This document shows, in pieces, positions 49,599 through 64,000 of a DNA stretch of 64,000 nucleotides. The notes beneath the pieces are model-generated. The model was not told the DNA's origin. It ran no database searches and was given only the letters and a program-made list of their open reading frames with translations. Each line of letters starts with the position of its first letter. Position 1 is the first letter of the stretch. Made by a program: the position numbers and the translations under genes. This stretch comes from an uncultured Candidatus Saccharibacteria bacterium (GTDB lineage: Bacteria; Patescibacteriota; Saccharimonadia; Saccharimonadales; CAIOMD01), in the NCBI GenBank assembly GCA_963716565.1, contig OY970318.1:256830-320829 (forward strand), given 5' to 3'.

Positions 49599-50180
49599 CT
49601 AGGGGTTCCTTAGCTCTGGATTACTCGGGCCTTCGGGTCCTTGTAGGCGTTCGTCATATTCTCGGCGAGCTTTTTCGGCGATGATTTTAAACTTTTCGGG
49701 GTCTTGCAACCAAGTCTCATAATCCATTCCATCAACCTCATGGTCTACAGTTTGGCCGTCACCCAATCTTTCGCCGATTATTGGCACCCTGGCCCCCTCG
49801 GCAGTTACGGCGTATCCTTCATAATCTACGTACCAGCCAAAATCTACCAACTCCCAATCCCTAACTCTTTCGCGTTCATCGCGAGTCATCTCCCATATTG
49901 TCCCAAGTATTTTACCTTCGGGATCGGCTAGGGCAACGTAACTCTTAAAATCATCATCCCAACATTCTTTTAATAAAGCCCTGGGCGAAATGGGTGCCGG
50001 TGCTTTAGGTAAAACCGTATCCGGCACTTGGTCTAGTCGCTGTATGGCTAAACGATAGCCCTCTAACACAGCCTGCTGGCCAACTAACTCTTTTGCCGGC
50101 CTGCCTAAGATAGCGGCTATCATTTGAGGATCGCGATTAGCACCGTATCCAAAATATAATACTGTTTCGTTTTCGCTCAT
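49599..50180 (-). CDS. gamma-glutamylcyclotransferase (AIG2/GGCT-like) family protein
   Basis: N-terminal LYFGYGANRDP motif (YGSN-type). Confidence 0.7.
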   Translation of the reverse strand: MSENETVLYFGYGANRDPQMIAAILGRPAKELVGQQAVLEGYRLAIQRLDQVPDTVLPKAPAPISPRALLKECWDDDFKSYVALADPEGKILGTIWEMTRDERERVRDWELVDFGWYVDYEGYAVTAEGARVPIIGERLGDGQTVDHEVDGMDYETWLQDPEKFKIIAEKARREYDERLQGPEGPSNPELRNP

Positions 50181-50749
50181 AATTTTACTTTTACTAGGCC
50201 GCCGTGGCCGGGAATAATAAAATCGGCTCTGCCCAAAATCTTCTTACGGCTGGCTTCTAGAACTTTCTGATTAGCCCCTTCGGTTGGATCCGTAATAGGC
50301 GTAAAATCTTCGTACCACCAAAGGTCTCCAGCAACACAAACAACGCCCTCGTTGGTATCAACCAGCAGGGAGCAGTGGTTAATGGTGTGGCCGGGCGTAT
50401 GAACTCTTTTTATGCCTTTAGTTATTTCGTATTCTTCATCTTCGAAAAAGCGATGCCCATCTTGTTTGTGGAATCCCCACCTATCAATAACTTCGGCGTT
50501 TCTAAAAATAGCAATATCTCTGGCGTGATCTAAATGTTCGTGAGTAATAAAAACATAGTTTATGTCTTCGATTTTCAAACTAAATTTGGCTAAGGCTTCG
50601 GCGTATTCTTTGGTGGATTCATGAGTGCCTGGGTCGACCACAATATTAAAGCCATCTGTTCTTACAAGCGTGGTGGTTGAAGCGTACCTATGAAATTCCT
50701 CACATAATTCGTGATTATAACCTTTTAGCAAGACATCAACTTTTGGCAT
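50177..50749 (-). CDS. MBL-fold metallo-hydrolase
   Basis: ITHEHLDH (HxHxDH), HTPGHT, and a late IPGHG motif. Confidence 0.9.
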   Translation of the reverse strand: MPKVDVLLKGYNHELCEEFHRYASTTTLVRTDGFNIVVDPGTHESTKEYAEALAKFSLKIEDINYVFITHEHLDHARDIAIFRNAEVIDRWGFHKQDGHRFFEDEEYEITKGIKRVHTPGHTINHCSLLVDTNEGVVCVAGDLWWYEDFTPITDPTEGANQKVLEASRKKILGRADFIIPGHGGLVKVKL

Positions 50750-50763
50750 ATAAGTCAGTATAA

Positions 50764-50805
50764 CAAAAAAATCCCAGCGACTCCTGCTGGTACAGGAGCC
50801 CTGGG
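50764..50805 (-). terminator. rho-independent terminator after the zinc-finger gene
   Basis: Minus strand reads CCCAGGGCTCCTG-TAC-CAGCAGGAGTCGCTGGG followed by ATTTTTTT. Confidence 0.6.
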
Positions 50806-50869
50806 GGTGTCACTTTACTGGGCAGAGTAACTATAGCCAAGTGAAAACTGTAGTTACTGATTGGGCCGC

Positions 50870-51172
50870 CTAGCCAGACGGATCGTCCTCGGGATACTCC
50901 TCGAGGAATTCCTCGTAGGTCATGATCGGGCCGATAGGCCCAACGCCGGTGCCGTGTGGCAATCCACGAGCGGACTGCTGAACTACGATGACGCCCTCCA
51001 GCCGCTTGCGACCCTTGAACGGGGTGTAAGTGACTGGCGCCCAACCTTTGCCACCGCAGTAGGCACAGGTTACGTATACGCCATCCGGTTCTCCGAGCCT
51101 ATGGTAGAGACCAGTGCCATCACACTCCGAGCAAGTTGCTCGCTCTGTAACGGCGCCCTCTGATACAGCCAT
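50870..51172 (-). CDS. small DnaJ-type zinc-finger protein (two CxxCxGxG motifs)
   Basis: CSECDGTG and CAYCGGKG. AAAGGAAG Shine-Dalgarno 5 nt before ATG 51172. Sits in a strongly G+C-rich islet. Confidence 0.7.
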   Translation of the reverse strand: MAVSEGAVTERATCSECDGTGLYHRLGEPDGVYVTCAYCGGKGWAPVTYTPFKGRKRLEGVIVVQQSARGLPHGTGVGPIGPIMTYEEFLEEYPEDDPSG

Positions 51173-51331
51173 GTGGCTTCCTTTCACTTCTGGCTACTGC
51201 AGGAACAAAGTATATTATAGCATATCTATGCTTTTATGTCTAGTATGTTATCCCCTTGAGATCGAGGCTTTAGCACTCATAGCACAAACAGCATCACAAC
51301 TGCCAGCAGGGTAAAGTTGAGATAATCAGTC

Positions 51332-52021
51332 CTACTTTTTTATGACTAGAGTTTCAATAAGATTATCGTGGTTTTTAGAAGGTGCGGTGCGATTAAAGCC
51401 TATGTAAAGCGTCTCATCATACGAAGTCATATATTTAACTTCTAGTACCACGCCTGCAAGACGTTCAGCAAGCTCATTTTCAGAAAAGAAGTGTCGCCTA
51501 GGCCTCTTTATTTTGCCAGTCACTGGCTCAATATCGGTATATTCTGTAAGGCCAGTAATGGGGTCATATGTAGAATCATCCGCCTTTGCACAATCGCAAT
51601 CTTTGGAGCGAACGACTATGTACATTTTGCCACCGACTTTTAAGATTCTTTTTAATTCTAGCAGCGTATCTACCAAATCTTTTTTGGTTAAATAATGTAA
51701 AACTAGCCTGGCGTAAATAAAATCAAAATAGTCATCTTTATAAGGTAGCGGCTGCGACACATCTTCTAGTTTTATTTCTATCTGACTGCTTAGATTCGCT
51801 TTTTTAAGATATTCTTTGGCGATTTCGATTCCATTTTTATCAATAGTGGTAGCAATAATATGACGATTTGGGTTCATCGCAGCCATTACGGCTTCGGCCT
51901 GGCCGCCCGTAGAAACTCCAACACTGTATATATTTAAATCATCCTCAGAAATGGCATCGATGCCATGCCTTTCGCTTTCAACAAGCAATGCCGTATTAAC
52001 GCCTAACGTATCGGGGTTCAT
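51332..52021 (-). CDS. class I SAM-dependent methyltransferase
   Basis: Motif I-like IYSVGVSTGG, acidic loop IEIKLEDV, and LKVGGKMYIV. Confidence 0.82.
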   Translation of the reverse strand: MNPDTLGVNTALLVESERHGIDAISEDDLNIYSVGVSTGGQAEAVMAAMNPNRHIIATTIDKNGIEIAKEYLKKANLSSQIEIKLEDVSQPLPYKDDYFDFIYARLVLHYLTKKDLVDTLLELKRILKVGGKMYIVVRSKDCDCAKADDSTYDPITGLTEYTDIEPVTGKIKRPRRHFFSENELAERLAGVVLEVKYMTSYDETLYIGFNRTAPSKNHDNLIETLVIKK

Positions 52022-52416
52022 ATTAATGCCTTTGCTGCTTGGTATACGTGTTGTTCGTAAACGTCATTACTGGATTTTAATGTCTCAACGTCTATAAACT
52101 GTGCGTCTGTTACGCCTTTACCAAAGATAAATTTTGTGGAGTCGATGGTGGTATCAAAAACAATCCATACAACCCATATTTGGCCATTTGGATGCTTGTA
52201 TGTTGCAGTGTAAATAACGTCTTTAATTACTGCACCATTCACGCCAAGTTCTTCCTTCAATTCTCGTAATATGCCTTCTTGGGGCTGCTCGCCATGGTGC
52301 AAACCACCGCCAGGAAGACTCCAAGTATCTTGATCTTCCTTAACTACCAGTACCTTGCCGTCTTTATCGCGCACAAGTGCCTTAACCGATATCCGATAAA
52401 AGGTATCCGAAATCAT
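52018..52416 (-). CDS. Nudix hydrolase
   Basis: Nudix box GGGLHHGEQPQEGILRELKEELGV. Start reassigned to ATG 52416, 6 nt after a TGCTATACT -10 box. Confidence 0.88.
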   Translation of the reverse strand: MISDTFYRISVKALVRDKDGKVLVVKEDQDTWSLPGGGLHHGEQPQEGILRELKEELGVNGAVIKDVIYTATYKHPNGQIWVVWIVFDTTIDSTKFIFGKGVTDAQFIDVETLKSSNDVYEQHVYQAAKALI

Positions 52417-52432
52417 ACCGCCAGTATAGCAA
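52414..52432 (-). promoter_or_regulatory. leaderless promoter-start module TTGCTATACTGGCGGTATG (copy 1 of 3)
   Basis: Extended -10 TGCTATACT, a 6-nt spacer GGCGGT, then the ATG. Identical 19-mers occur at 54073-54091 and 54901-54919. Confidence 0.6.
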
Positions 52433-52510
52433 AAGATTAAAGTATGGTAATTTACCCCCTGGGCCTGGCACGCTATAAGCGCACCAAGCCACAGAGGGGC
52501 GGGTAGGGGG

Positions 52511-53170
52511 TTAACGCGGCTGGATGATCTTTTTGGCATACTCTAACGCGACCAGCGTTTTCTTGGTAGCCCGTAGAATCTTTTTTGGTACTTTGCCGTC
52601 CGGCCACAATACGCAAAGGGTAGCCGGGTTGAAGCAGCGAAGAATAACCTCGTCGCGCCAAACACCGCCAACCAAGGAGCATTTTGGCAACCGACCAAAC
52701 TCAACATAGCCCACGCCAGCCAGTGCCTTTGCCGAAGCAGTGTTGCCATCTCTGTAGCCTGAATCTATACCGTACAGCCCAAGCTCATTGAAGGCGTACC
52801 ACGTTCTGAACCGATGGGTTACAGAAGCTATGCCTTTGCCCCACCAGTTAGTATCAGCCAGCACAATGCCGCTTTCGTAATAGTGGGCACTTCTACGACC
52901 CAAGCCAGTAACACCTATCAGCTCTTCTTTGTCGTCTTGCTTGACGGCCACCAGCCACTCTACAACGCCTTGGTCGGTTCGAGCCTTTTCTAGCCACTCT
53001 TCTTCGTCTTTGATGGTCATGCTGCCACCGATAGTAATGAACTCGTTTACACGATAGTTGCACAGTAGGCTCGATAGCTTTTCGGCATCACCCGGCTGGG
53101 GCCCCCTCATCACAATCGTGAAAGGTTGCCCGGCATTGGCTTGCTCCACTTCAAATCGCGGACCAAACAT
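52511..53170 (-). CDS. GNAT family N-acetyltransferase (RimJ/RimL-like)
   Basis: WWGKGIASVTHRFRTWYAFNELGL acetyl-CoA binding region. AAAAGGAGG Shine-Dalgarno. G+C-richer than its neighbours. Confidence 0.83.
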   Translation of the reverse strand: MFGPRFEVEQANAGQPFTIVMRGPQPGDAEKLSSLLCNYRVNEFITIGGSMTIKDEEEWLEKARTDQGVVEWLVAVKQDDKEELIGVTGLGRRSAHYYESGIVLADTNWWGKGIASVTHRFRTWYAFNELGLYGIDSGYRDGNTASAKALAGVGYVEFGRLPKCSLVGGVWRDEVILRCFNPATLCVLWPDGKVPKKILRATKKTLVALEYAKKIIQPR

Positions 53171-53255
53171 TTTGTTAACCTCCTTTTAGTAGGAACTAGC
53201 CCCATCTTGTGATGGAGCCCAAACGACCTCTCGCTACTAAAAAGTTTTTGATTTA

Positions 53256-53281
53256 AAAAAGCCTCCTTTGGCGGGAGGCTC
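53256..53281 (-). terminator. hairpin terminator
   Basis: Minus strand reads AGCCTCC-CGCCAAA-GGAGGCT followed by TTTTT. Confidence 0.5.
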
Positions 53282-53475
53282 TTTGGGATTCACCAATTTT
53301 TGTCTATCAAAAAACCTCTCCACTAATAATCTGTTCTTTATCGCCTAAGAACATATTTGCAGAAATATAACTTGTGGATTGATTATCATTACGCATGATT
53401 TTTAATATTAAACATAAACTCAATACTTGTCAAATTTTATTCGACCATTAACACCGCTGAAAATGCAAAAAGATT

Positions 53476-54075
53476 CTAAAACTTAATGCGGTTTTTTCTG
53501 GCTTTTAAAGATACCGCGTCTAGTTTTTGTATGAATGGGTCAACCTTGCAACATTCTGTTGTATCCCTTAATAATTCTTCTATGGCGGGTTTGTGTTTGC
53601 TAGTAAAAGTCATAACCGACTCACTCAAAAACTGCAGTTGGCCCTCCAGCCTATCTAGCGCCTTTAAAACTTTGGCCTCATTAGTTTTTTGGTCTTCGAA
53701 CTCTACAAATAAATCGTAAACTTCTTTACCACTCGACCCAAGCATTTTTTGAATCTTCTTCATGGCTTTTAATTCTTGTTCGTGCTTAGACTTACCGGCT
53801 TTTTTATTGTTGATGTGTTGGAGTATGGGTATATCTTTATATTCAATTTCTACTAAGTCGTGAATAATAGCCATTTTTAAGGCTTTTAAAAGATCAATTC
53901 TAATTTTTAGTTTTGGCGCTACCAAAACTAACATCAAAGAGACCCGCCAACAATGTTCTGCCACGCTTTCGCGGTCGTTATTACTTTTAGAAGCCTGCCG
54001 AAGTTCCACTTTTAACTTTTCGGCATAGTGAATAAAATCAACAACTACCTGCGCCTCATCCTCAACCGATTTCAT
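53476..54075 (-). CDS. HD-domain phosphohydrolase (YfbR-like)
   Basis: VAEHCWRVSL (His) and AIIHDLVEIE (HD) motifs. Confidence 0.87.
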   Translation of the reverse strand: MKSVEDEAQVVVDFIHYAEKLKVELRQASKSNNDRESVAEHCWRVSLMLVLVAPKLKIRIDLLKALKMAIIHDLVEIEYKDIPILQHINNKKAGKSKHEQELKAMKKIQKMLGSSGKEVYDLFVEFEDQKTNEAKVLKALDRLEGQLQFLSESVMTFTSKHKPAIEELLRDTTECCKVDPFIQKLDAVSLKARKNRIKF

Positions 54076-54091
54076 ACCGCCAGTATAGCAA
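54073..54091 (-). promoter_or_regulatory. leaderless promoter-start module (copy 2 of 3)
   Basis: Exact TTGCTATACTGGCGGTATG on the minus strand, ending in the HD gene ATG. Confidence 0.6.
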
Positions 54092-54123
54092 AAAGGATTT
54101 AGCTTATACCGTGCTCGCTTTAA

Positions 54124-54903
54124 TCAATTTTTTGTAAGAGCGATCGCACTGAACTTTGGTGCAAAACCGATACGCTTATAGAATTCGTAAGGGTAGTGGC
54201 CAGCCTCGGTCGCCAGACAGTGAAGGGTGTTACCATTTTTTATCGATTGTCTAACGGCATAAAGCGACACGGCCTTGCCAAAACCCTCGCCCCTAACAGT
54301 TAGTAAAGAACCAACGTTAGAAATATAGCCAATACCACCGTAATTAGTTAAAGATGACACGCCCACGGGCTTATCGTTTTTGTACGCCATAAAATATTGA
54401 ATACGCCCAGACTCGTGGTGTTTCTGCCAAGCGCTTTTGGCTGTATCCAAGTAATCGCCCAGTTCGCCATAGGGGTTTTTGGGATCGTCTTTTTTATAAC
54501 AATTATTAAAAGTATCTATAAAAATTTCTAGGCCAGCTTCGCTATCAATAGTTTTTATAGTGTCAAATTTTGCTGTATCTATTACCGTTTTAGAATCATA
54601 AAATTCCCAGCAATCTTCGGCACTCTTGGCGTAGCCTTTTGACTGCAGCAGCTTTTTAAAACTCTCTAGTTCTTGGCAATCCTCAAAATAAATAGTTGGT
54701 TGGCGATTGATTTTTTTAAAAGCATCTTCTATTTGCCGAATTTCGGCATCCGAAAGCGTCTTGTTGACAAAAGCAAGGTTCCACCAACAAGAAGAATCAG
54801 TTTTTGAATAGGCTAATTTAGCAAAACCAAGCTCGCTGGTTTCATCAAACATAATGTCGCTTTGCAGTTCAATATACTTTTGCAAAAACTCTTGATTACT
54901 CAT
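54124..54903 (-). CDS. GNAT family N-acetyltransferase
   Basis: VRGEGFGKAVSLYAV (R/QxxGxG/A motif) in the C-terminal half. Confidence 0.83.
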   Translation of the reverse strand: MSNQEFLQKYIELQSDIMFDETSELGFAKLAYSKTDSSCWWNLAFVNKTLSDAEIRQIEDAFKKINRQPTIYFEDCQELESFKKLLQSKGYAKSAEDCWEFYDSKTVIDTAKFDTIKTIDSEAGLEIFIDTFNNCYKKDDPKNPYGELGDYLDTAKSAWQKHHESGRIQYFMAYKNDKPVGVSSLTNYGGIGYISNVGSLLTVRGEGFGKAVSLYAVRQSIKNGNTLHCLATEAGHYPYEFYKRIGFAPKFSAIALTKN

Positions 54904-54919
54904 ACCGCCAGTATAGCAA
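54901..54919 (-). promoter_or_regulatory. leaderless promoter-start module (copy 3 of 3)
   Basis: Exact TTGCTATACTGGCGGTATG on the minus strand, ending in the GNAT gene ATG. Confidence 0.6.
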
Positions 54920-55012
54920 GGATTAGTTAGGCCAACTGCATTTAAAATCTGTTATTATTTTCTTAGATCCGAAGAGCATCAGCAAAGGGCTGTCTACAGA
55001 TTGGAGTTTAAA

Positions 55013-55849
55013 ATGGGAGAGAAACGCAAGACAAAGCCAATGATTTGGCAAGAGATCTACAACAAGGTTGTAGACGAAGTCAGCAAGGGCATGATCTTCT
55101 CGTTCAACGCCATCCAGCTCGGCGAGTTCGTTGACACGGTCGTAGAAGAAGGGTGGTCCCGAGGCTACCTCGACAAGCAGCTTCGCAAGTTGTTGTCGCT
55201 CGCAAGACAAGGCAAGCTGGGCCTGATGAAGTATCATGCCGACCATTTCGGCCTTGATGCCAAGATGGTCAAGCTTGCCGATGCACTCGAAGACAACGAC
55301 TTTCAGCGGAACTTCGACTTGGTGGTTGGTGTTCTCGGCAGCAACAACTACACCGTCGTTTCGGCAACTGGCCTATACCACTACCTAAGGGAAGTCCGTG
55401 CGCACGGCCTTATCGGACCCGAAATAAGCGAGCAAGTGCAAAGGCTCTGCAATTTCGTTCTCGAAGGCAGGCTCGGAGAACTCAACACCAAGAGGGCGGC
55501 CAAAGAGTTCGGGTTTGATACGTCAATCGTGTATCTGTCCTACGCCCTGTACAAGGGCAAGGCAGACCAACAAAGCCGTATCACTACAGACGACATCGTG
55601 AAGGCGATCAACCAAGAGTGTCGCGGCTACGATACCGTCGCGCTCGATCTTCTGGCGAAGTTCATAGAAGAGGTCAAGGCTGCAGAGTGGGGCCCACATA
55701 AGCTCCACCAGCAGCTCAAGGTCTTCTTCCGTCTTGCGCACAACCGCAGGCTGTCTGATGTAGGGCCCGAAAACGATTTTCTCGGGCTCGACCCAGCAGT
55801 CATGACCCGCCTGATCGATGCCTACGAGCAGGCCCACCCCCGTCTGTAA
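55013..55849 (+). CDS. hypothetical protein built from three ~85-aa internal repeats
   Basis: GGAG Shine-Dalgarno 6 nt before ATG 55013. G+C-rich. Each repeat ends in an FG(L/F)D...L..A.E pattern: HFGLDAKMVKLADALE, EFGFDTSIVYLSYALY, DFLGLDPAVMTRLIDAYE. Confidence 0.62.
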   Translation: MGEKRKTKPMIWQEIYNKVVDEVSKGMIFSFNAIQLGEFVDTVVEEGWSRGYLDKQLRKLLSLARQGKLGLMKYHADHFGLDAKMVKLADALEDNDFQRNFDLVVGVLGSNNYTVVSATGLYHYLREVRAHGLIGPEISEQVQRLCNFVLEGRLGELNTKRAAKEFGFDTSIVYLSYALYKGKADQQSRITTDDIVKAINQECRGYDTVALDLLAKFIEEVKAAEWGPHKLHQQLKVFFRLAHNRRLSDVGPENDFLGLDPAVMTRLIDAYEQAHPRL

Positions 55850-55893
55850 CTCCTATGCGCCTAGTAGGGCACAACAAGCTTTTCGGTGAATTA

Positions 55894-55919
55894 AAGGAGG
55901 CTTTGGCGCGAGCCTCCTT
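55894..55919. terminator. hairpin between convergent genes
   Basis: AAGGAGGCT-TTGGCGCG-AGCCTCCTT. There is no clear U-run on the + strand and only a short T-run on the minus strand. Confidence 0.45.
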
Positions 55920-55967
55920 CACCCAAGAAATATAATATTTATAAGATATTTAATGACTCAGCTAGAG

Positions 55968-56375
55968 TTACATATAACCTAGTTTTTCGAACAGGATGCG
56001 CGAAGGGGGAACAATGTCGTATTTTGGCAAATCTTCTTTGGCGACCCACTCGATTTTTTCTATGCCTTCGCCAACAACAATTTCGCCGCTTTGGTATTCG
56101 CACAGAACATCTAAGTAAACAAAGAATTTTTTAACGCCATCTAGGTCGTTTTTAATTTCGGTGTCCCACGAAAGCTTATTTTTTACAGTAATATCAATAC
56201 CAGCCTTGGCTCTTACTTCGGCCTTAACCGCGTCATCGGGGCTAACATCTGGTGTAGCCGTTGCCCCGAATATGTACCAAGTTTCTTTATAGGGCGGGGA
56301 ACCATCCGGCTTTTTGCGCATTAAAATTTTGCCGTCTTTTTCGACTATCGCTATTATAAGTACTTTAGTTTCCAT
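55968..56375 (-). CDS. Nudix-fold protein with degenerate Nudix box
   Basis: GATATPDVSPDDAVKAEVRAKAGI occupies the Nudix-box position, but the REUXEE glutamates are replaced. TGTTATACT -10 box 6 nt before the ATG. Confidence 0.72.
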   Translation of the reverse strand: METKVLIIAIVEKDGKILMRKKPDGSPPYKETWYIFGATATPDVSPDDAVKAEVRAKAGIDITVKNKLSWDTEIKNDLDGVKKFFVYLDVLCEYQSGEIVVGEGIEKIEWVAKEDLPKYDIVPPSRILFEKLGYM

Positions 56376-56476
56376 AATGTGAGTATAACAAATATTGACT
56401 TCCTAGCCCCTTTATGGTATCATATACATTATCATGGCAACCGCTGTGACGAATCGTCTCCCGAAAGGAGAAGAGG

Positions 56477-56758
56477 TTGATAATTTATTTGGATTGCAAT
56501 GCGTTACGCAGAATGGCTAGAAAGGCCCTCCGAGAGGGCACTTTGCCACCAGAATGTGACTACGTAGAAGAATCCGATCTTCTGGACATCTGGTGTTACA
56601 AGGGCGATCCTCGGATCTATTGCTCCTTCGCCGGATTGTCAGAGACAGAGTGCACACCCAAGGGGGGCTCTGTCGACGACTATATGGTTCACATAGGGTC
56701 CAGGATGGCAGTCGGGATTCTTGATCTCGGGTCTGCTGAAATTACCTGGGTCAGCTAA
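56477..56758 (+). CDS. hypothetical protein (G+C-rich orphan)
   Basis: 93-aa ORF with TTG start and AAAGGAG Shine-Dalgarno 6 nt upstream. TGGTATCAT -10 box at about 56416-56424. Confidence 0.5.
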   Translation: MIIYLDCNALRRMARKALREGTLPPECDYVEESDLLDIWCYKGDPRIYCSFAGLSETECTPKGGSVDDYMVHIGSRMAVGILDLGSAEITWVS

Positions 56759-56921
56759 ATAAAGGCAGACCCGGGCTTAGCAAACGCAACATATCGATCG
56801 GATGGGCCCTGTAATCTAGCCCGGCTAGATTGCATTGACGCTTCGCGAGTATTGCATCACCGGCCAACCTTGGCCCAACCTCTGCTGTTGGGTGATATCG
56901 CAAGATAACACCTAACAGCTT

Positions 56922-56972
56922 CCGCTCACTAAGTGTGTGCTTAGTCTGACGAGTCGAAAACGACGAAAGCGA
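56922..56972 (+). ncRNA. type III hammerhead ribozyme motif, copy 1
   Basis: CGC-U-C (predicted cleavage after 56927). Helix I ACUAAG-UGUGUG-CUUAGU, then CUGACGA. Helix II GUCG-AAAA-CGAC, then GAAA and GCG. All invariant core positions are present. Confidence 0.8.
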
Positions 56973-56980
56973 AAAACAAT

Positions 56981-57373
56981 CTAGCGTTGCCACTGGGTAA
57001 TATGCGGGGAGAAGTCTACCTGATAATCGGGTATGCCAATCGCTATGCCATATTTTGTGGCTTCGTTGTATTGCTCTTTGTTGGAGCGGTCGGTTATATG
57101 AAAAACCTTATCACGATAGATTATGTAGTGCTCTTTATCACTTCTATAATCAGCGTACCAATCATGTTCTTCGTCTAATGCTTTGCTAAGTTTTTGGGCA
57201 ACTTCGGCCGCTTTTTCTGCCGGCACTTCAACTTCGTGCATAATCCATTGCTTTACCCACGGAGTTTTATGTTTTTCGGTCGCTGGCTCAACCTCGGTTG
57301 ATACAATTTTTACGTCTTCTAATACAGATAAGTCTGTTAAGCTTTCTTCAATAATAGTGCCTCGAAAATCCAT
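56981..57373 (-). CDS. hypothetical protein
   Basis: 130-aa ORF. TGGTATCAT -10 box 6 nt before the ATG. No family recognised. Confidence 0.68.
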   Translation of the reverse strand: MDFRGTIIEESLTDLSVLEDVKIVSTEVEPATEKHKTPWVKQWIMHEVEVPAEKAAEVAQKLSKALDEEHDWYADYRSDKEHYIIYRDKVFHITDRSNKEQYNEATKYGIAIGIPDYQVDFSPHITQWQR

Positions 57374-57517
57374 ATTTTTATGATACCAGAAATCGCTAGC
57401 CGATAATGCCTTAAAGAGATATAATGTACTCGCTCGTTTTGAGTTGTTTCTACAAGATTTTTAAACCAAGAACTTGTTTTGTTTGAAAATCTTAACAGAG
57501 GCGAGCCGGCCATAAAA

Positions 57518-57558
57518 ATACGCAATTAATTTTTTGTTAAATAAAATTGATTGCGTAT
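57518..57558. repeat. AT-rich inverted repeat just upstream of tRNA-Gln
   Basis: ATACGCAATTAATTTT / AAAATTGATTGCGTAT: 16-nt arms with one mismatch and a 9-nt loop. Confidence 0.6.
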
Positions 57559-57578
57559 TAAAAGGCCGAGATCGCCGA

Positions 57579-57653
57579 TGGGACGTGGCCAAGTGGTAAG
57601 GCACCAGGTTTTGGTCCTGGCATTCGGGGGTTCGAATCCCTCCGTCCCAGCCA
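57579..57653 (+). tRNA. trnQ: tRNA-Gln (anticodon TTG), CCA encoded
   Basis: TGGGACG acceptor pairs with CGTCCCA. Anticodon stem CCAGG/CCTGG with loop TTTTGGT, T-arm GGGGGTTCGAATCCCTC, 75 nt. Confidence 0.9.
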
Positions 57654-57810
57654 CGAAAGTACCGGGTTTTATGCCCAGTTTTTTCGTGGCTTGACCAGGA
57701 AGCAAACCAACTGCTTGGTTTGCGTGGGATTCGAACAGGCGGAGCAATGTCGAGCTATTCAGCGAGACCGCGAGCCGGGCCCGAACGCAAAAAGCAAAGC
57801 TTTTTGACGT

Positions 57811-57838
57811 GTGGGTCGAAATCCCTCCGTCCCAGCCA
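57811..57838 (+). repeat. duplicate of the tRNA-Gln 3' end (T-arm half + acceptor + CCA)
   Basis: ATCCCTCCGTCCCAGCCA (57821-57838) is identical to 57636-57653. The preceding GGGTCGAA resembles GGGTTCGA of the tRNA. Confidence 0.85.
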
Positions 57839-57916
57839 AGTGATACGCATGGAATGGAAGTCCCGGAAGTCCAGGTTGCCCTGATTTGAAACGACGATAA
57901 CTGTATACTAGGTGCA

Positions 57917-58420
57917 ATGAAAGTTTTCATAACATCAAGCTCCGGTGTTGGTAAGACAGCTGTCGTCGCTGAGCTAAAAAAGCGGGGTTATACAGCTTAC
58001 GATGCTGACGACCACGAGCTTAATTTAACTAGGTTAGAAGTTAAAGAAACTGGTGAACCGGTGGAATGGCCGAAGGGTTATGTTGATTGGCATTATTACT
58101 CTTGGAGCGCTAATGAAGAAAGACTAAAAGAGCTCCTTGCTAGCGCCGAAATCGTTTTTATAAGCGGTTTTTTGGGTAATCAAGAGAAGCTGTATCATTA
58201 TTTTGATAAATTAATTGCATTAACCATTGACCCGCAAGAACATGAACGACGGCTGCGGAGTCGCCCAAAACGCGAGGTCGGTGACGATGAACAAAACATC
58301 CAACGAAGGCTAGAAAGATATTCTGGGCATATAGAAAAGTTTATTGCCACTGGCTTTATTCTTATTGATAATTCTGGTCCAGTTACACAGACTGTAGACA
58401 AAATCGAACAAGTTATTTAG
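57917..58420 (+). CDS. P-loop kinase/NTPase
   Basis: Walker A SSSGVGKTAV near the N-terminus. 167 aa. TATACT -10 box 7 nt before the ATG. Confidence 0.75.
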   Translation: MKVFITSSSGVGKTAVVAELKKRGYTAYDADDHELNLTRLEVKETGEPVEWPKGYVDWHYYSWSANEERLKELLASAEIVFISGFLGNQEKLYHYFDKLIALTIDPQEHERRLRSRPKREVGDDEQNIQRRLERYSGHIEKFIATGFILIDNSGPVTQTVDKIEQVI

Positions 58421-58539
58421 AGGTATAGCGAAAGAAAGTTAAAAAGGTCCTAGGCCGCGATGCTTAGCCAAGCATAAGCATTATTTTCTACATTTGGAAT
58501 TTTAGTAATATCAAATCCCGAAACTGTTAAACTAGTGAC

Positions 58540-59196
58540 ATGAAAATATTCTTATCATCAGCCGGCATCAGAACCGAAGAGCTGGCACAAAGTTTGTCAA
58601 ATCTCGCAGGCAAACCATTAGATCAAATTAATGTTGCAGTTATTAATGAAGCTTCTGCCGTAGAACCTGGAGATAAAACCTGGTTCATTGACGAGATCAA
58701 TTATTTAAGAAAATACATTGGCGGTGAGATTGATTTTGTTGATTTATTGGCCCTTAACATAAAAGAAATTGCAGAACGACTTGAATTTGCAGATGTCATA
58801 TATGTAGTTGGGGGCAACCCGGACTATCTACGTTTCTTATACGACAAGACTGGTTTTAGTAAACTCCTTATCGATGATCTACTTAATAAAAAGGTTTATG
58901 TGGGCAGTTCGGCTGGCTCGATGGTACTTGGCAGGCGTGGCTCTACTAATGAATACCAGCATTATTACGGTGAGGATCGTACATTTGGGACAGAAGATTA
59001 CTTAGGTGTCGTTGACTTTGTTATAAAACCACATTTTGAAAGCGCAGACTTACCGAAGAATCACAAAGATATTCTACTAAAAGCTAGCATTGATGAGCGA
59101 CTTCAAATTTATGCTATCAAAGACAGTCAAGCCATAATAAAAGATGAAGAGAAAATATCTTTTGTAGGCGGAGAAGTATTTTCTGCAGGCTCTTAA
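58540..59196 (+). CDS. peptidase S51 (dipeptidase E-like) family protein
   Basis: VVGGNPDYL and GSSAGSMVLG (Ser nucleophile) motifs. Confidence 0.83.
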   Translation: MKIFLSSAGIRTEELAQSLSNLAGKPLDQINVAVINEASAVEPGDKTWFIDEINYLRKYIGGEIDFVDLLALNIKEIAERLEFADVIYVVGGNPDYLRFLYDKTGFSKLLIDDLLNKKVYVGSSAGSMVLGRRGSTNEYQHYYGEDRTFGTEDYLGVVDFVIKPHFESADLPKNHKDILLKASIDERLQIYAIKDSQAIIKDEEKISFVGGEVFSAGS

Positions 59197-59228
59197 TTTC
59201 GAATTCTGTTCGCCAGAAGAACCCAAAT

Positions 59229-59627
59229 TTATTTCTTTATAACAGCAGTGACTTCAATTTCAACTTTGTTGCCTTTACGCGTCATGGCATTTACTTCTAG
59301 CACCGTGCTAACTGGCCTACTATTCGCGAACCATTTGTCCCTAATTGCTGACACTTTTTCGAAATCGTTCATGTCAGTTAAAAATATTTGGGCTTTTACA
59401 GCATCGTCCATAGAAGCACCGGCCGCATTTAAAGTTCTTTCGACAGCCTTAAATACGAGTTCGGTTTGTTCTTCTACATCATCTGTTATTGCTTCGTTAT
59501 TTTCGTTCTTTCCAACTTGTTGGCCAGAAACAAAGATTAAATAGGCATTGCCAATATCAATCTTCTTGGCGGGTGAATAGAACCCCCGCGTTTGTTGCCA
59601 ATCATCCGGATAAATATTCTCAATCAT
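59229..59627 (-). CDS. RidA/YjgF/L-PSP family protein
   Basis: FVSGQ, KAQIFLTDMNDF and VEIEVTAV motifs. Start reassigned to ATG 59627, 7 nt after a TGATACAAT -10 box. Confidence 0.86.
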   Translation of the reverse strand: MIENIYPDDWQQTRGFYSPAKKIDIGNAYLIFVSGQQVGKNENNEAITDDVEEQTELVFKAVERTLNAAGASMDDAVKAQIFLTDMNDFEKVSAIRDKWFANSRPVSTVLEVNAMTRKGNKVEIEVTAVIKK

Positions 59628-59767
59628 GCCTTTTATTGTATCAGACCCGTTTTTCTGTTTTCGAAGCACTACTATAATTGACTTTTTTCGTTCTTTATGT
59701 TATCCTAGGCCCATAACTACAACCCGTAGTTTGAGTTGGGGAACCGACTTGAAAACAAGGAGATTGG

Positions 59768-60122
59768 CATGCCACTGCATATACTCGTAAAAGAAGATTG
59801 GCAGACCAAGCACGGACCACCCGGATTTACGCCGTTGCTTCAAGCACAGCGCCAGTTCGAACTGGCGTTTCCGGACAACGTTGGGTTCACATTGACCGAC
59901 TTTCTTGTCGGCATCGGGAACAACGAGCCAGAGGGCAGCAAGCGCGTTAGAACCAGGATAAGCAGCCCGTTCCACGAGCTAGAGAACGCCGTCGTGGTAC
60001 AGTGCGGCCCACCGGAAGCCAGTGACAACTTCGATGCCATGGTCCAAGTCGTTCGCGATGTTGCGGATGGGTTCGTAGCGCAGATGCAGACGAACGCCAA
60101 GCAGTTCGCCGCCGAATCCTAG
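59768..60122 (+). CDS. hypothetical protein (G+C-rich orphan)
   Basis: AAGGAG Shine-Dalgarno 7 nt before ATG 59768. 117 aa with no recognisable motif. Confidence 0.55.
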
Positions 60123-60141
60123 GCCTCTGGACGCCAGCTTA

Positions 60142-60171
60142 GGTAGGGGGCGCACTATAGCGCCCCCTACC
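60142..60171 (+). terminator. perfect 12-bp GC-rich hairpin
   Basis: GGTAGGGGGCGC-ACTATA-GCGCCCCCTACC, 20 nt after the stop codon. No U-run follows. Confidence 0.5.
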
Positions 60172-60191
60172 GACAGCGCCTCCTTGTTCTC

Positions 60192-60244
60192 TTTACTTCA
60201 TAAGTGTGTACTTATGCTGACGAGTCGAAAACGACGAAAGTAAA
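60192..60244 (+). ncRNA. type III hammerhead ribozyme motif, copy 2
   Basis: UUUAC-U-U (predicted cleavage after 60198). Helix I CAUAAG-UGUGUA-CUUAUG, then CUGACGA. Helix II GUCG-AAAA-CGAC, then GAAA and GUAAA. Helix III is 5 bp plus A15.1-U16.1. Confidence 0.85.
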
Positions 60245-60294
60245 ATACTTTGCTTATGCTTGCAAGCTTATTGTTTGCAGAATATTATGAAAAC

Positions 60295-60528
60295 ATGAAT
60301 TACGAATTTGGAGGCGTTAACCATGGAGAAGAAGAGCCCAATTATGGTTATAGCCCTGAATTCACAGAGAAGATGCGCTTGAAAACTCAGGGTCTTTGCC
60401 CAGAAGATGAATATAAAGGTCAGCCTTGCATGTGCGCCAATTGCCCATATCCAAACGAATGCATTGATGCCGCTTGTGATGCTTGCGAGGGCCCCGTTTT
60501 AGAATGCGACCCAACCGAAAACAACTAA
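60295..60528 (+). CDS. small Cys-rich protein (8 Cys)
   Basis: MNYEFGG...CPEDEYKGQPCMCANCPYPNECIDAACDACEGPVLEC. TATTAT box 6 nt before ATG 60295. The track start at 60250 would lie only 6 nt past the ribozyme 3' end (60244) and upstream of that box. Confidence 0.5.
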   Translation: MNYEFGGVNHGEEEPNYGYSPEFTEKMRLKTQGLCPEDEYKGQPCMCANCPYPNECIDAACDACEGPVLECDPTENN

Positions 60529-60565
60529 CCCAACCCTGTTTTCTGTTTTTTGATATCATATGTTC

Positions 60566-60949
60566 ATGAAAACAATACTTGCTGATGCAATAAGCGGGCT
60601 CATCTTAAAAGATGGGACGGTCTTTGAAGAAATGTACAAATTGCTCGAATCCTATCCTAATTCAAAAATTGTACTAAGCGGGGCAAACGATGAAGAGTGG
60701 AAACAATTCAATTTAGATATTTCACCATACGAAATCTTTACCCTCAAACACAACCCCGAAAAAACCGACCCGGCATATTTTCGCACTCTACTAGAGCACT
60801 ATAACCTGAGCCCTGATGATGTCATTTACTTTGAACACAACGCCCAGGCTGCCCAAACCGCTGAATCGCTTGGTATTTGTACATACTTTTACGATCACAC
60901 AAAAGCAGATATAAGCGCCCTCAAAAACTTCCTAGATAAAAACTTGTAG
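60566..60949 (+). CDS. HAD-like hydrolase fold protein (degenerate motif I)
   Basis: LADAISG sits at the DxDGT position, and FEHNAQAAQTAESLG resembles HAD motif III/IV. TGATATCAT -10 box 6 nt before ATG 60566. Confidence 0.55.
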   Translation: MKTILADAISGLILKDGTVFEEMYKLLESYPNSKIVLSGANDEEWKQFNLDISPYEIFTLKHNPEKTDPAYFRTLLEHYNLSPDDVIYFEHNAQAAQTAESLGICTYFYDHTKADISALKNFLDKNL

Positions 60950-61222
60950 AACCTAGCCCCATAACCTTAACCAACCCCATTTTTCTGTTTTTGGTACAAT
61001 CTAACTACGTGGTGATAGACATTGAACTTACACTAAACAGATTTGGGCTGGGGAAGATTTCTAAAAACAAATTCCAGCTATTTTTTATTAGGTTTTCTAG
61101 GTGGAATGTTCCAGGCAAGCATTCGATTTCCTTCGAAATCAACTGGCGCACCAAAGATAAAAAATCCGGACTGAGCTAAATCCACCCCAAATCATTTTTC
61201 TGTTTTTTGATATCATCTGAGT

Positions 61223-61681
61223 ATGAAGAAACCATTGAAAGAACTCGAAAAGCAAATCCGCGAGCAAGCTGTAAAAGATGGTATCACGCATTTATCTACG
61301 GGTATCGCAATTATTAAAGATGGTAAAGTTTTGATTGTTCGCCGAGAGCCCAATGATTTTTTGGGCGGTTACTATGAACTGCCCGGCGGTGGAATTGATA
61401 AAGACGAGACGTTCTACGAAGCCGTAAAAAGGGAAGTATTAGAAGAAACCGGTTTAGAAGTTACTGCCATAACAAACATACTAAAGGGTTTCGATTACAC
61501 AACCAATAAAAAACCACGCGTTAGGCAAACTAACTTTACAGTTAGCGTTTCGCCTGGCGAAGTACAATTATCTAAAGAACATGATGATTACAAATGGATA
61601 AGCCCAGACGAGGTTGATGGATTTAACATGACCAAAGAGATAAAAACCTCCATCGAAGACACATTCAAGGATAGCCTTTAG
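61223..61681 (+). CDS. Nudix hydrolase
   Basis: Nudix box GGGIDKDETFYEAVKREVLEETGL. TGATATCAT -10 box 6 nt before the ATG. Confidence 0.9.
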   Translation: MKKPLKELEKQIREQAVKDGITHLSTGIAIIKDGKVLIVRREPNDFLGGYYELPGGGIDKDETFYEAVKREVLEETGLEVTAITNILKGFDYTTNKKPRVRQTNFTVSVSPGEVQLSKEHDDYKWISPDEVDGFNMTKEIKTSIEDTFKDSL

Positions 61682-61700
61682 GGGGCTTGGCAAAAACTTT

Positions 61701-62192
61701 ATGCAGAAATTTACCCAGAAATATACACTAGCGCACATTATTAAAAACCTGCCCGATGGCTATGAATTTTCTATGGAAGATTGGCCCCTACACGTAACCT
61801 TAGCTGATGTATTCGCAATACGGGGCAACCCACAAGATTTACTCAAACTTTTAGATAGTAAGCTCAGCAGCCTTAAACCAATAAAATCACAGGTTATTGG
61901 AGAAGATTGGCTTGGCATAGAAAACAAAGTTCATGTAATGCTAATTAATAAAACTGACACTCTGCAATCTTTGCATGAAGCTATTATTGATGTGCTAGAA
62001 GAATTTAAGGCAACCTTTAACACTCCTCAATTTATGCATGAAGGATTTAAGCCACACTCCACAGTCAAGGACAACAAGCAATTACGTGTTGGCGAGGAGG
62101 TTAACATTAACTCCGTGACTTTAATTGATATGTTCCCAAACAATAACCCTTGCCAGCGAAAAGCTTTGGGTACGATACATTTTTCAAAGTAG
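61701..62192 (+). CDS. 2H phosphoesterase superfamily protein (LigT-like)
   Basis: Two HxTx motifs: LHVTLA and PHSTVK. Confidence 0.68.
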   Translation: MQKFTQKYTLAHIIKNLPDGYEFSMEDWPLHVTLADVFAIRGNPQDLLKLLDSKLSSLKPIKSQVIGEDWLGIENKVHVMLINKTDTLQSLHEAIIDVLEEFKATFNTPQFMHEGFKPHSTVKDNKQLRVGEEVNINSVTLIDMFPNNNPCQRKALGTIHFSK

Positions 62193-62260
62193 CTTAGCTG
62201 AAGCCTTTGTTGTGCTTATAGCTGTAAGCATATACAATGCTTATGATTAATAAATAAAGG

Positions 62261-62914
62261 ATGGGCATGAACAAACTAGCAAAAGCAACGAAAGAACACA
62301 GCAAGTTAACAGATCAAACCGGCAGTATGCATTTAATGATAATTTTAGCAGTGGTTGTGGCCGCTGTTATTGGCGCCGGCATCTACGTGTGGAAATCACA
62401 GGATTCTAAAGATGCAGATACCGCCACTACGCAAGAACAAACAACAGATGACACTCAACCAGCAGTTTCTGGAGTAAGCACTACTCTATTGGGCGGCAGG
62501 CTAACAATGCTAGTTCCAGATGGCTGGACAAAGGGCACGGAACAAAACCTAATTAAAGATGTAGACGGCACCAGTTTTAGAGTAGCAATCCAGGCCCAAG
62601 GCGTGGACTTTTTGGCATCAGATACTGTTGGCGGTTATGCTACCGAGGTTTCTCAAGTAGAAACAACTCAAGGCACTACGCTTTACATTCTTAAGCTAGG
62701 ACTAACCGAAAGCACAACTAATTATGTTGTTAGCACATGTACTGCGAACGCTGGTTTTGGGTGCGCCCCAGTACTTGACGATAGCAAGCTATACGTAACG
62801 CTAGCTCCGCTTGGCGACGGCAGCTCAACTATAGCTCCGCTTGATTACACACTACCAGCAACCGCTACGGCACTTACCGATTTTGAAGCAATTGCCAGAG
62901 CACTACCTTTGTAA
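62261..62914 (+). CDS. membrane-anchored extracellular hypothetical protein
   Basis: N-terminal TM helix (LMIILAVVVAAVIGAGIYVW) followed by a Thr/Gln-rich linker. Confidence 0.62.
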   Translation: MGMNKLAKATKEHSKLTDQTGSMHLMIILAVVVAAVIGAGIYVWKSQDSKDADTATTQEQTTDDTQPAVSGVSTTLLGGRLTMLVPDGWTKGTEQNLIKDVDGTSFRVAIQAQGVDFLASDTVGGYATEVSQVETTQGTTLYILKLGLTESTTNYVVSTCTANAGFGCAPVLDDSKLYVTLAPLGDGSSTIAPLDYTLPATATALTDFEAIARALPL

Positions 62915-62949
62915 GTCTCCAAACACAACAAGATAGTACTTACATTATA

Positions 62950-62979
62950 AAAACCCAGGATTATAGCTCCTGGGTTTTT
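62950..62979. terminator. bidirectional terminator
   Basis: AAAACCCAGGA-TTATAGC-TCCTGGGTTTT between convergent genes. Confidence 0.75.
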
Positions 62980-63016
62980 AGATTTTCTACTACTCCAACC
63001 TCATTTTTTTGTTTTG

Positions 63017-64000
63017 CTATAATCCAACGATTTCCCACATAGCATCTTTGTTACGCCAGAATTCATCGTCCCACGAGCTAGACAGTTCCACTAGCAAGCC
63101 GGGCACACCAAGCTTTTCGCCAACCCAATCTTCGAAGGCCCCGCTAATGCTGTAATCGAAAACACTGCCCAAAGAATAGTAGGGAATAAACCAATAGTCT
63201 GCGTTGTAGGCATAGCTTTTGCCAACCGCTTCGGCATCACCAGCAATATTAGACTGCACCATGCCACCGTAACTATGGTAAGTAATCGCAAAGCGAATAT
63301 TATGCGATTGAATATAGCTGGCCAAAGCTGCAGTTTCTGGCTCTGAAAGGGGCGCTGGGCCACCAGTAGCAACCAAAATACCATTGCTATCGGGCTCCGT
63401 AACCATGCTAGACCAATCACTGGTAGGGAAGTTGCGGTTTAAATTAACGCCGTTGGCGTTCAAGCGGCTGCCACTAGCCACACCGTCTGGATTGGTAGAT
63501 GGAACAATCACCAAACTGACGTTTGTAGGAATTCTGTCTGGGCTAGCATCAAGTTCGTTTATCCATTTTTCTAGCAAAGTTTTTGAATTAGTTTCACTGC
63601 CATGCATGGCACCAACAAACAAAATAGTTTTACCGGCTGTACCAAACTGGCTGGCGATTATAGCCCTGCCTTGTACTGACGTACCTATGCTAAAGTTCGT
63701 ATGGCAGGTTGTCCTAAAATCGTAAGACCAAGCTGAGTTGCCACTAAACCCATAATTGCTTTTTATGTCGTTAGTTAATGAGATGTTCACTCGAGCACAA
63801 AGCGGGAAACCGCTATCTGGGTTGATAGCAATTGAGTTGCCGCTAATACTCACAGCAGCTGACGCACTAGCACCATTGACCTTCAGCGATACCACATCCG
63901 CTAATGATTGAGCAGCATCTAAAGTTTGATCAAAATAAACAACCAAATTGTTGTACAGACCCACTCCCGAGCTGCCAACATTGGTTTCGCTAACTTGTGG
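63017..64000 (-). CDS. M14 zinc carboxypeptidase family protein, 5' end beyond window
   Basis: HGSETNS (HxxE), NPDG, NANGVNLNRNFP and YHSYGG motifs. The frame stays open from 63964 to 64000, so the GTG in the track is probably internal. Confidence 0.85.
   Translation of the reverse strand, partial: PQVSETNVGSSGVGLYNNLVVYFDQTLDAAQSLADVVSLKVNGASASAAVSISGNSIAINPDSGFPLCARVNISLTNDIKSNYGFSGNSAWSYDFRTTCHTNFSIGTSVQGRAIIASQFGTAGKTILFVGAMHGSETNSKTLLEKWINELDASPDRIPTNVSLVIVPSTNPDGVASGSRLNANGVNLNRNFPTSDWSSMVTEPDSNGILVATGGPAPLSEPETAALASYIQSHNIRFAITYHSYGGMVQSNIAGDAEAVGKSYAYNADYWFIPYYSLGSVFDYSISGAFEDWVGEKLGVPGLLVELSSSWDDEFWRNKDAMWEIVGL

Follow-up and report, generated by a model that had tools for sequence, protein, structure and literature searches.

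The window analysed here is a stretch of 64,000 nucleotides (64 kb) from an uncultured Candidatus Saccharibacteria bacterium. It carries two sequences that are very probably genuine type III hammerhead ribozymes, for which self-cleavage is predicted: copy 1 at 56920-56974 and copy 2 at 60192-60244, both on the + strand. Judged by the relatives collected, they belong to a subfamily that is found mainly in Saccharibacteria and other Patescibacteria and is a new example of a well-known RNA class. Copy 1 lies in the 3' untranslated region (UTR) of a small orphan open reading frame (ORF1). With moderate confidence, we propose that it acts there as a constitutive transcript separator and 3'-end former of a moron-like cassette.

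Structure and conservation of the hammerhead motif

All consensus features of a type III hammerhead are found within 56923-56971 (+). Helix III is open and has four pairs (C56923-G56971, G56924-C56970, C56925-G56969 and U56926-A56968), the innermost of which is the U16.1-A15.1 pair. Outwards, a C56922xA56972 mismatch is followed by a possible extension (U56921-A56973 and U56920-A56974). Helix I (56928-56933/56940-56945, 6 bp) is capped by the loop UGUGUG at 56934-56939. The core CUGACGA (56946-56952) leads into helix II (GUCG 56953-56956 / CGAC 56961-56964, loop AAAA), which is followed by G12A13A14 at 56965-56967. The topology is that of type III, helices I and II being loop-closed and the 5' and 3' ends lying in helix III. 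H17 is C56927, and cleavage is therefore predicted, on hammerhead numbering, at the bond 56927-56928 (+), 3' of C17 and 5' of A1.1 (A56928). The first-pass annotation had described copy 1 base by base, and every element that it listed is present on the + strand.

Copy 2 was exposed by a scan with the loose pattern CTGANGA...GAAA, which has five matches in the window where 2.2 are expected, a number not significant alone. The site found at 60217 matches copy 1 exactly over the 23 nt of core, helix II and loop 2. Helix III of copy 2 has 6 bp (60192-60197/60239-60244), H17 is U60198 (predicted cleavage 60198/60199), helix I is formed by 60199-60204/60211-60216 with the loop UGUGUA, the core occupies 60217-60223, and helix II with its loop spans 60224-60235. 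The copies have the same orientation, lie 3271 nt apart and are 88% identical over 48 nt. From copy 1 to copy 2, compensatory changes are seen in helix I (A-U to C-G, C-G to A-U) and in helix III (G-C to A-U, C-G to U-A), and H17 changes from C to U, which is permitted. The core-adjacent pairs (1.1-2.1, 10.1-11.1 and 15.1-16.1) are A-U, G-C and A-U in copy 1 and C-G, G-C and A-U in copy 2. For both copies, the unconstrained minimum free energy (MFE) fold in a context of 114-151 nt is the three-way junction of the hammerhead. Apart from these two, the window contains no further copy according to covariance model R1, run with filters off, where the next best site scores 11.6 bits.

Relatives were retrieved with the exact core and helix II pattern from the window (22 specified bases). 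With the AAAA-loop pattern and one genome per species, 44 loci were obtained: 35 in Saccharibacteria, 5 in other Patescibacteria, 2 in Bdellovibrionales metagenome-assembled genomes (MAGs), 1 in a Nanoarchaeia MAG and 1 unclassified; 4 viral contigs come in addition. All 46 distinct AAAA-loop-2 sequences have type III architecture. Two have a 5-nt loop 1; the other 44 conform to a template of fixed length (at least 4 bp in helix III, U16.1, H17, helix I of 6 bp, 6-nt loop UGNGUR) and were aligned without gaps. An exact scan of viral contigs for CTGANGAGTCGNNNNCGACGAAA gave 36 loci, mostly type I hammerheads and a few of type III.

Independent comparative evidence is limited to those parts that the search pattern left free, namely helices I and III, U16.1, H17 and loop 1. 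U16.1 does not vary among the 46 distinct relatives, in which H17 is C, A or U, never G. In the alignment of 44 sequences, helix I is 98% paired and all six of its pairs are changed on both sides, while in helix III the four inner positions pair in every sequence (100%) and show up to five pair types. With a covariation score of 0.636, the alignment stands above shuffles (0.175; none of 500 reaches 0.636) and slid registers (at most 0.13). Many of the 44 loci represent one syntenic site in related species, so that sequence counts overstate the number of independent events. The covariation spans several unrelated contexts and phyla, with conservation across Patescibacteria classes and viral contigs. 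This pattern indicates that the motif is under structural selection. Loop 1 reads U-G-N-G-U-R, with columns 19, 20 and 22 conserved at 90% or more, which suggests a constrained role.

A covariance model built solely from relatives in other genomes, with the window sequences excluded (R2), assigns 71.3 bits to copy 1 and 72.2 bits to copy 2 and detects no other site in the window at E<=1. Among the Rfam families, Hammerhead_3 (RF00008, clan CL00010) is the best match for both copies when thresholds are permissive, and its local alignment is in the correct register. At gathering score, only two tRNAs and a ribosomal protein L10 leader are reported for the whole window, and no hammerhead is found either there or in 36 related loci. 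The type III identity claimed in the first-pass annotation is supported by the consensus, the best-matching family, the covariation in helices I and III and the MFE fold.

Several points weigh against this identification. The RF00008 scores are 18.2 bits (copy 1) and 18.7 bits (copy 2), against a gathering score of 48.5. The first-pass annotation had suggested a covariance-model search as a check and had counted a score below threshold against the motif; formally, this is how the Rfam search turned out. We attribute the low score to the make-up of the Rfam model rather than to the motif, because the family-specific model separates the motif cleanly. The gathering score is a criterion of the curated model, not a biochemical one. 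The curated model recognises the architecture of both copies yet would leave it unannotated, and a Nanosynbacter relative (L074) also scores only 28.2 bits. In addition, copy 1 has a helix III of no more than 4 bp. Because the search pattern fixed helix II and loop 2, no comparative information comes from them, and loop-loop covariation is for the same reason outside the reach of the alignment. A tertiary contact between loops 1 and 2, needed for fast cleavage at physiological Mg2+, is putative here, and no obvious Watson-Crick pseudoknot between the loops is seen with the AAAA loop.

The low score and the short helix III would also fit a chance similarity or a decayed, catalytically inactive sequence, for example a remnant in the bidirectional terminator region between convergent genes; the site does lie in such a hairpin-rich region, and the window shows no enrichment of the loose box pattern. 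Such an origin is poorly supported and very improbable in our view. Both copies and all 46 distinct relatives have a flawless core, compensatory covariation is extensive, the motif is conserved across Patescibacteria classes and in viral contigs, and the two free positions, U16.1 and H17, behave as a hammerhead would demand.

Organisation of the units and proposed role

The window has a G+C content of about 40% and contains housekeeping-type genes. The L10 leader (RF00557, 16631-16756 (+), 45.6 bits, just over the gathering score of 44) identifies it as part of a bacterial chromosome. Each ribozyme terminates a G+C-richer island, and both units consist of a promoter-like site, an ORF preceded by a ribosome-binding site (RBS), a hairpin and the ribozyme. 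In unit 1, the promoter-like site at 56395-56423 (+) reads TTGACT-17-TATCAT with TG (10/12 matches). It is followed by ORF1 (56477-56758 (+), 93 aa, TTG start, AGGAG Shine-Dalgarno). The 3' UTR of ORF1 has several hairpins, the last of which (56884-56919 (+), about 15 bp, GCAA loop, no U tract) ends 3 nt before helix III of copy 1; the fold of 56880-56985 has z = -5.05. The first-pass annotation had noted a GGTGATATC-GCAA-GATAACACC hairpin here, which is the inner part of this longer one. Its distances hold as well: the ORF1 stop lies 165 nt upstream of the motif, and the convergent ORF at 56981-57373 starts 9 nt after 56972.

In unit 2, the promoter-like site at 59678-59706 (+) reads TTGACT-17-TATCCT with TG, and both sites have ATTGACTT-N8-CTTTATGnTATCnTA in common. 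ORF2 (59769-60122 (+), 117 aa, ATG start, AAGGAG 7 nt upstream) is annotated as a gene in public assemblies, and copy 2 lies in its 3' UTR. Between ORF2 and copy 2 lies a G+C-rich hairpin of 12 bp (60142-60171 (+), GGTAGGGGGCGC-ACTATA-GCGCCCCCTACC), again without a U tract. Neither ORF is separated from its ribozyme by a predicted intrinsic terminator, nor is there any terminator-like site in 59500-60700. In both units, the predicted start and the cleavage site are separated by about 0.49 kb of RNA, including 5' leaders of about 45-55 nt.

The composition of ORF2 is foreign (GC1/2/3 0.64/0.38/0.68, against a host GC3, the G+C content at third codon positions, of 0.31-0.43), with clear coding periodicity; the foreign signal of ORF1 is weaker (0.50/0.45/0.56). 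Both ORFs are orphans. In a word-indexed search of 5.8 billion proteins, each matched only itself, and neither has a Pfam or PHROG match or a phage homologue. An exhaustive HMMER search with ORF2 returned only weak multi-stretch matches to PKD-repeat giants, which we judged to be repeat-inflated noise. A single-sequence AlphaFold model of an island ORF had a pLDDT (predicted local distance difference test) of 45.7 and was not used.

The layout recurs in the relatives. In 40 of 51 motif instances, a same-strand ORF ends at most 400 nt upstream. These upstream ORFs typically have 80-200 codons, end 45-130 nt before the cleavage site and are often G+C-richer than their locus. The 60 nt upstream of helix III fold with a mean of -16.3 kcal/mol, compared to -10.3 for shuffles (p=5e-10) and to -7.9 for the 60 nt downstream of the ribozyme (p=4e-7). 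In 33 of 46 loci, the last paired base of the hairpin is 0-3 nt from helix III, so the abutting hairpin is a family-wide feature. In 13 Saccharibacteria loci, the RNA motif RAGATH-10 (RF03147) is found 350-600 nt upstream on the same strand, immediately before the RBS of the ORF, giving the order RAGATH-10, ORF, hairpins, hammerhead in a unit that adjoins a convergent RNase HII-YraN-like gene (L074 3119-3850 (-), L040, L042, L043, L046, L049, L053, L054, L056, L059, L060, L062 and L080).

We envisage that RNA polymerase starting from the promoter-like site at about 56395-56423 would read through the hairpin into the ribozyme, which would then fold and cleave between C56927 and A56928. The upstream product, some 0.5 kb long, would keep the hairpin and, at copy 1, an 8-nt tail with a 2',3'-cyclic phosphate, the hairpin 56884-56919 thus being placed 8 nt from the new 3' end. 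More generally, cassette mRNAs would retain only 4-8 nt of helix III plus H17 beyond their terminal hairpin, and hairpin and cyclic phosphate together may provide a defined, exonuclease-resistant 3' end. The downstream product would carry the ribozyme body with a 5'-OH. At copy 1, this would be antisense read-through into the convergent gene for a 130-aa protein, while at copy 2 it would be the leader of the next co-directional ORF. Separation and insulation of the transcript of a moron-like cassette is a role that unifies the convergent and the co-directional contexts. Bacterial hammerheads have been described to flank individual, non-constant genes, and transcript processing was proposed for them (PMC3088659); elsewhere, a 3'-UTR or processing role is called suggested yet unproven and the role in bacteria largely elusive (PMC6765202). 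A separator role fits both the earlier proposal of transcript processing (PMC3088659) and the statement on the elusive role (PMC6765202).

Several points count against such a role. The two promoter-like sites are consensus matches only, and the transcript ends are predictions. The consequence for stability and insulation is deduced from geometry. If the upstream hairpin terminates efficiently, the ribozyme would rarely be transcribed. Another island of the window does end in a similar U-less hairpin (55895-55920) without a ribozyme.

Alternatively, the ribozyme may mainly serve the downstream RNA, whose 5'-OH and structured cap would insulate translation or stability, as intercistronic processing or as a natural insulator of the 'RiboJ' type. 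This would agree with copy 2, which is followed by a small co-directional Cys-rich ORF (60295-60528), with seven loci, from several independent contexts, where an RBS and a start codon follow on the same strand 10-30 nt after the ribozyme (L014, L055, L068, L070, L003, L032 and L033), with the gene in L055 that is bracketed by two ribozymes, and with the processing of polycistronic RNA proposed in PMC3088659. At copy 1 and at the commonest Saccharibacteria site, however, the downstream gene is convergent, its stop codon being 0-9 nt from the ribozyme, so that no downstream mRNA is present that it could serve. What all contexts have in common is the upstream hairpin with the upstream same-strand ORF. 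We thus regard a primarily downstream function as unlikely, if worth keeping in mind, and prefer transcript separation.

The variability of the upstream gene raises a different question. The commonest Saccharibacteria site adjoins a convergent RNase HII-YraN-like gene, and at least six ORF families unrelated by BLAST fill the slot there. Between Saccharibacteria genomes that have flanks with 85-94% identity, about 500 nt, from the promoter or RAGATH-10 to 4-17 nt before the cleavage site, have no detectable similarity. The ribozyme (36-65 nt) is all that the window islands and all fetched related loci have in common, while the two window units share only their promoter-like 5' end and the ribozyme at their 3' end.

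The ribozyme could hence be a 3' 'bookend' of a mobile or exchangeable cassette, with a promoter and in some cases RAGATH-10 at its 5' end, and could act through recombination homology or an RNA intermediate and not simply in mRNA processing. In addition to the replaced segment, the unrelated families at one site and the units alike only at their ends, this would account for ORFs that are G+C-richer than the host (GC3 up to 0.68-0.70 versus 0.31-0.43) and for cassette proteins of some relatives that match secreted, membrane or moron PHROGs (phrog_301, phrog_2169 and phrog_30542). Against it, once a type III ribozyme has cleaved, no more than some 6 nt of it stay on the upstream RNA, so that a cassette copied via RNA would not carry the ribozyme. 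No integrase, reverse transcriptase or transposase is seen adjoining the units, and beyond the 48-nt ribozyme they are not flanked by target-site duplications or terminal repeats. A functional RNA that is conserved beside a fast-evolving or replaced gene is, moreover, expected without any role in mobility. We consider a bookend function distinctly improbable.

It is tempting to speculate that, in Saccharibacteria, the type III hammerhead and a conserved promoter/RAGATH-10 leader form the fixed boundary of a hypervariable single-gene cassette site, where unrelated G+C-rich ORFs, some of them resembling phage morons, would be exchanged by genomes that are nearly identical elsewhere, and that the window units are dispersed copies of this format. 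We hold this broader idea to be doubtful. If the ribozyme were required for acquisition, exchange or expression of the cassettes, beyond the mere trimming of mRNA, this would be a previously undescribed ribozyme-bounded gene-cassette system, and such cassettes would give bacterial hammerheads a concrete biological role.

Hammerhead cleavage chemistry yields ends that can be ligated by RtcB. With two copies in the same orientation 3271 nt apart, the pair could in principle excise an RNA of 3.27 kb (56928-60198) for circularisation in the manner of retrozymes or viroids. This is poorly supported and extremely improbable. The interval is occupied by genes in both orientations, by a tRNA gene and by separate promoter-like sites; the similarity between the copies is confined to 48 nt, and LTR-like flanks are absent; and in the relatives the ribozyme is usually single. 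A retrozyme-like circular RNA was rejected on the gene content of the interval.

Other features of the window and of related loci

The convergent gene beyond copy 1 (56981-57373 (-)) lies outside the ribozyme unit; its stop codon is 9 nt beyond the motif. It codes for a conserved hypothetical protein of 130 aa without a Pfam domain, which is 68-80% identical in more than 300 protein clusters from diverse contexts, including contigs not from Patescibacteria. Such conservation is unusually high for a small uncharacterised protein. None of its homologues elsewhere has a hammerhead beside it, and their contexts are unrelated. Metagenome relatives of an S51 peptidase are likewise not syntenic and lack a hammerhead. 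A megablast search of 54000-64000 against a phage collection gave no match, and apart from the two copies there is no other relevant Rfam match at E<=1 in 50000-64000.

Further G+C-rich islands occur without a hammerhead. An ORF of 282 aa (55001-55849 (+), GC3 0.70) has three internal repeats, and its island is the one that ends in the U-less hairpin mentioned above (55895-55920). Two others hold a 105-aa ORF that resembles a zinc finger (CxxCxGxG, 50870-51187 (-)) and a 219-aa ORF (52511-53170 (-)). The region gives the impression of a mosaic of foreign genes within a genome of about 40% G+C.

A tRNA-Gln gene is found at 57579-57653 (+). Downstream of it by 185 nt, in a G+C-rich stretch (57600-57900), there is a 26-nt copy of its 3' end with 88% identity (57813-57838 (+)), which may represent either an att-like relic of an integrated element or a piece of a tRNA pseudogene. 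Immediately 5' of the tRNA gene lies an inverted repeat (57500-57576) with 34-nt arms, 74% complementary, and a 9-nt spacer; in Rfam, it has only a noise-level match (mir-302). At three consecutive gene junctions (60526-60570, 60968-60992 and 61183-61227, all +), an intergenic motif TAACCnAACCC...TTTTCTGTTTTTTGATATCAT comes after the stop codon and reaches to within a few nt of the next start; it is a possible promoter of mRNAs that are leaderless or have a short leader.

Among the related loci, one (L055, 3322-4592 (-)) has two hammerheads of the same subfamily 1248 nt apart that bracket a single G+C-rich gene for an AAA_28 NTPase, and each of these hammerheads comes after a GGGAGGTCC...CCTCCC hairpin and before an RBS. 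A CUCCU tract before copy 2 and in relatives was considered as an anti-Shine-Dalgarno mimic; this was rejected because, in the relatives, the tract is the 3' strand of a stem that encloses the 3'-UTR hairpin. Three viral contigs carry four hammerheads each, of mixed types I and III, within about 1.5-1.8 kb (L008 7070-8851, L016 6591-8083 and L026 8618-10110).

Significance and comparison with known systems

Hammerheads are the best-studied small ribozymes. To these, the locus adds a covariation-supported subfamily that current Rfam thresholds miss and that is concentrated in the ultrasmall epibiotic Saccharibacteria and in other Patescibacteria. Added interest comes from the stereotyped 3' end of hairpin and ribozyme and from the variable-cassette context, often with a convergent gene. 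The layout leads to the hypothesis that the ribozyme defines and protects the mRNA's 3' end and insulates the cassette. This could be tested in vivo, as there are carriers, Nanosynbacter strains among them, that can be cultivated and are genetically tractable (PMC10633639). For annotation, the result indicates that the G+C-rich, orphan-ORF islands of these genomes are organised units of transcription rather than noise.

With the type III hammerheads of RF00008, the subfamily shares the core (C3U4G5A6N7G8A9, G12A13A14, the A15.1-U16.1 pair and H17) and the same three-helix junction, in which loops cap helices I and II and helix III is left open. It differs in scoring 18-28 bits against the gathering score of 48.5, and in its compactness (helix I of 6 bp with loop UGNGUR, helix II of 4 bp with AAAA, helix III of 4-8 bp). 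It is bacterial-chromosomal, in contrast to viroid, satellite or eukaryotic repeat sequences, and has a hairpin that abuts the 5' strand of helix III. Retrozymes and viroid-like elements have two hammerheads in long direct repeats around a short unit, non-coding or with a single ORF, which is excised and circularised; the window copies, with 48 nt shared at a distance of 3271 nt, do not correspond to this.

The bacterial and phage hammerheads of Perreault et al. 2011 (PMC3088659) are likewise intergenic, with multiple copies per region and variable gene partners, and the arrangement in the three viral contigs, which flanks short genes, is like that of the prophages reported there. That paper singles out a difference of 2 bp between stem I and stem II in type III hammerheads, commonly with a loop-loop pseudoknot. 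The window copies share the two-base-pair difference, whereas the Watson-Crick pseudoknot is not obvious in them. They also lie outside any recognisable prophage, with no integrase or phage structural genes nearby. That paper makes no mention of Saccharibacteria or Patescibacteria (0 hits in a text search for 'TM7'), and in the literature searched we found nothing that links hammerheads with Saccharibacteria, TM7 or Patescibacteria.

In the RAGATH-10 (RF03147) units of Saccharibacteria, RAGATH-10 and the same hammerhead subfamily bracket one small variable ORF. In the window, RAGATH-10 has no match at gathering score, and none at E<=1 in 50000-64000; in its place, the window units have their short 5' leaders, about 45-55 nt long. 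The very name RAGATH implies that hammerhead-associated genes from genomes of this kind were already in the sights of the Breaker and Weinberg groups.

The 'morons' of phages are autonomous promoter-gene-terminator insertions of deviant base composition. The window units differ from them in that they end in a hairpin and a ribozyme and not in a canonical intrinsic terminator, in that they reside on a bacterial chromosome, and in that their ORFs are without phage homologues. Like morons, they each possess a promoter-like site and a 3' end signal of their own around one small ORF of deviant G+C content.

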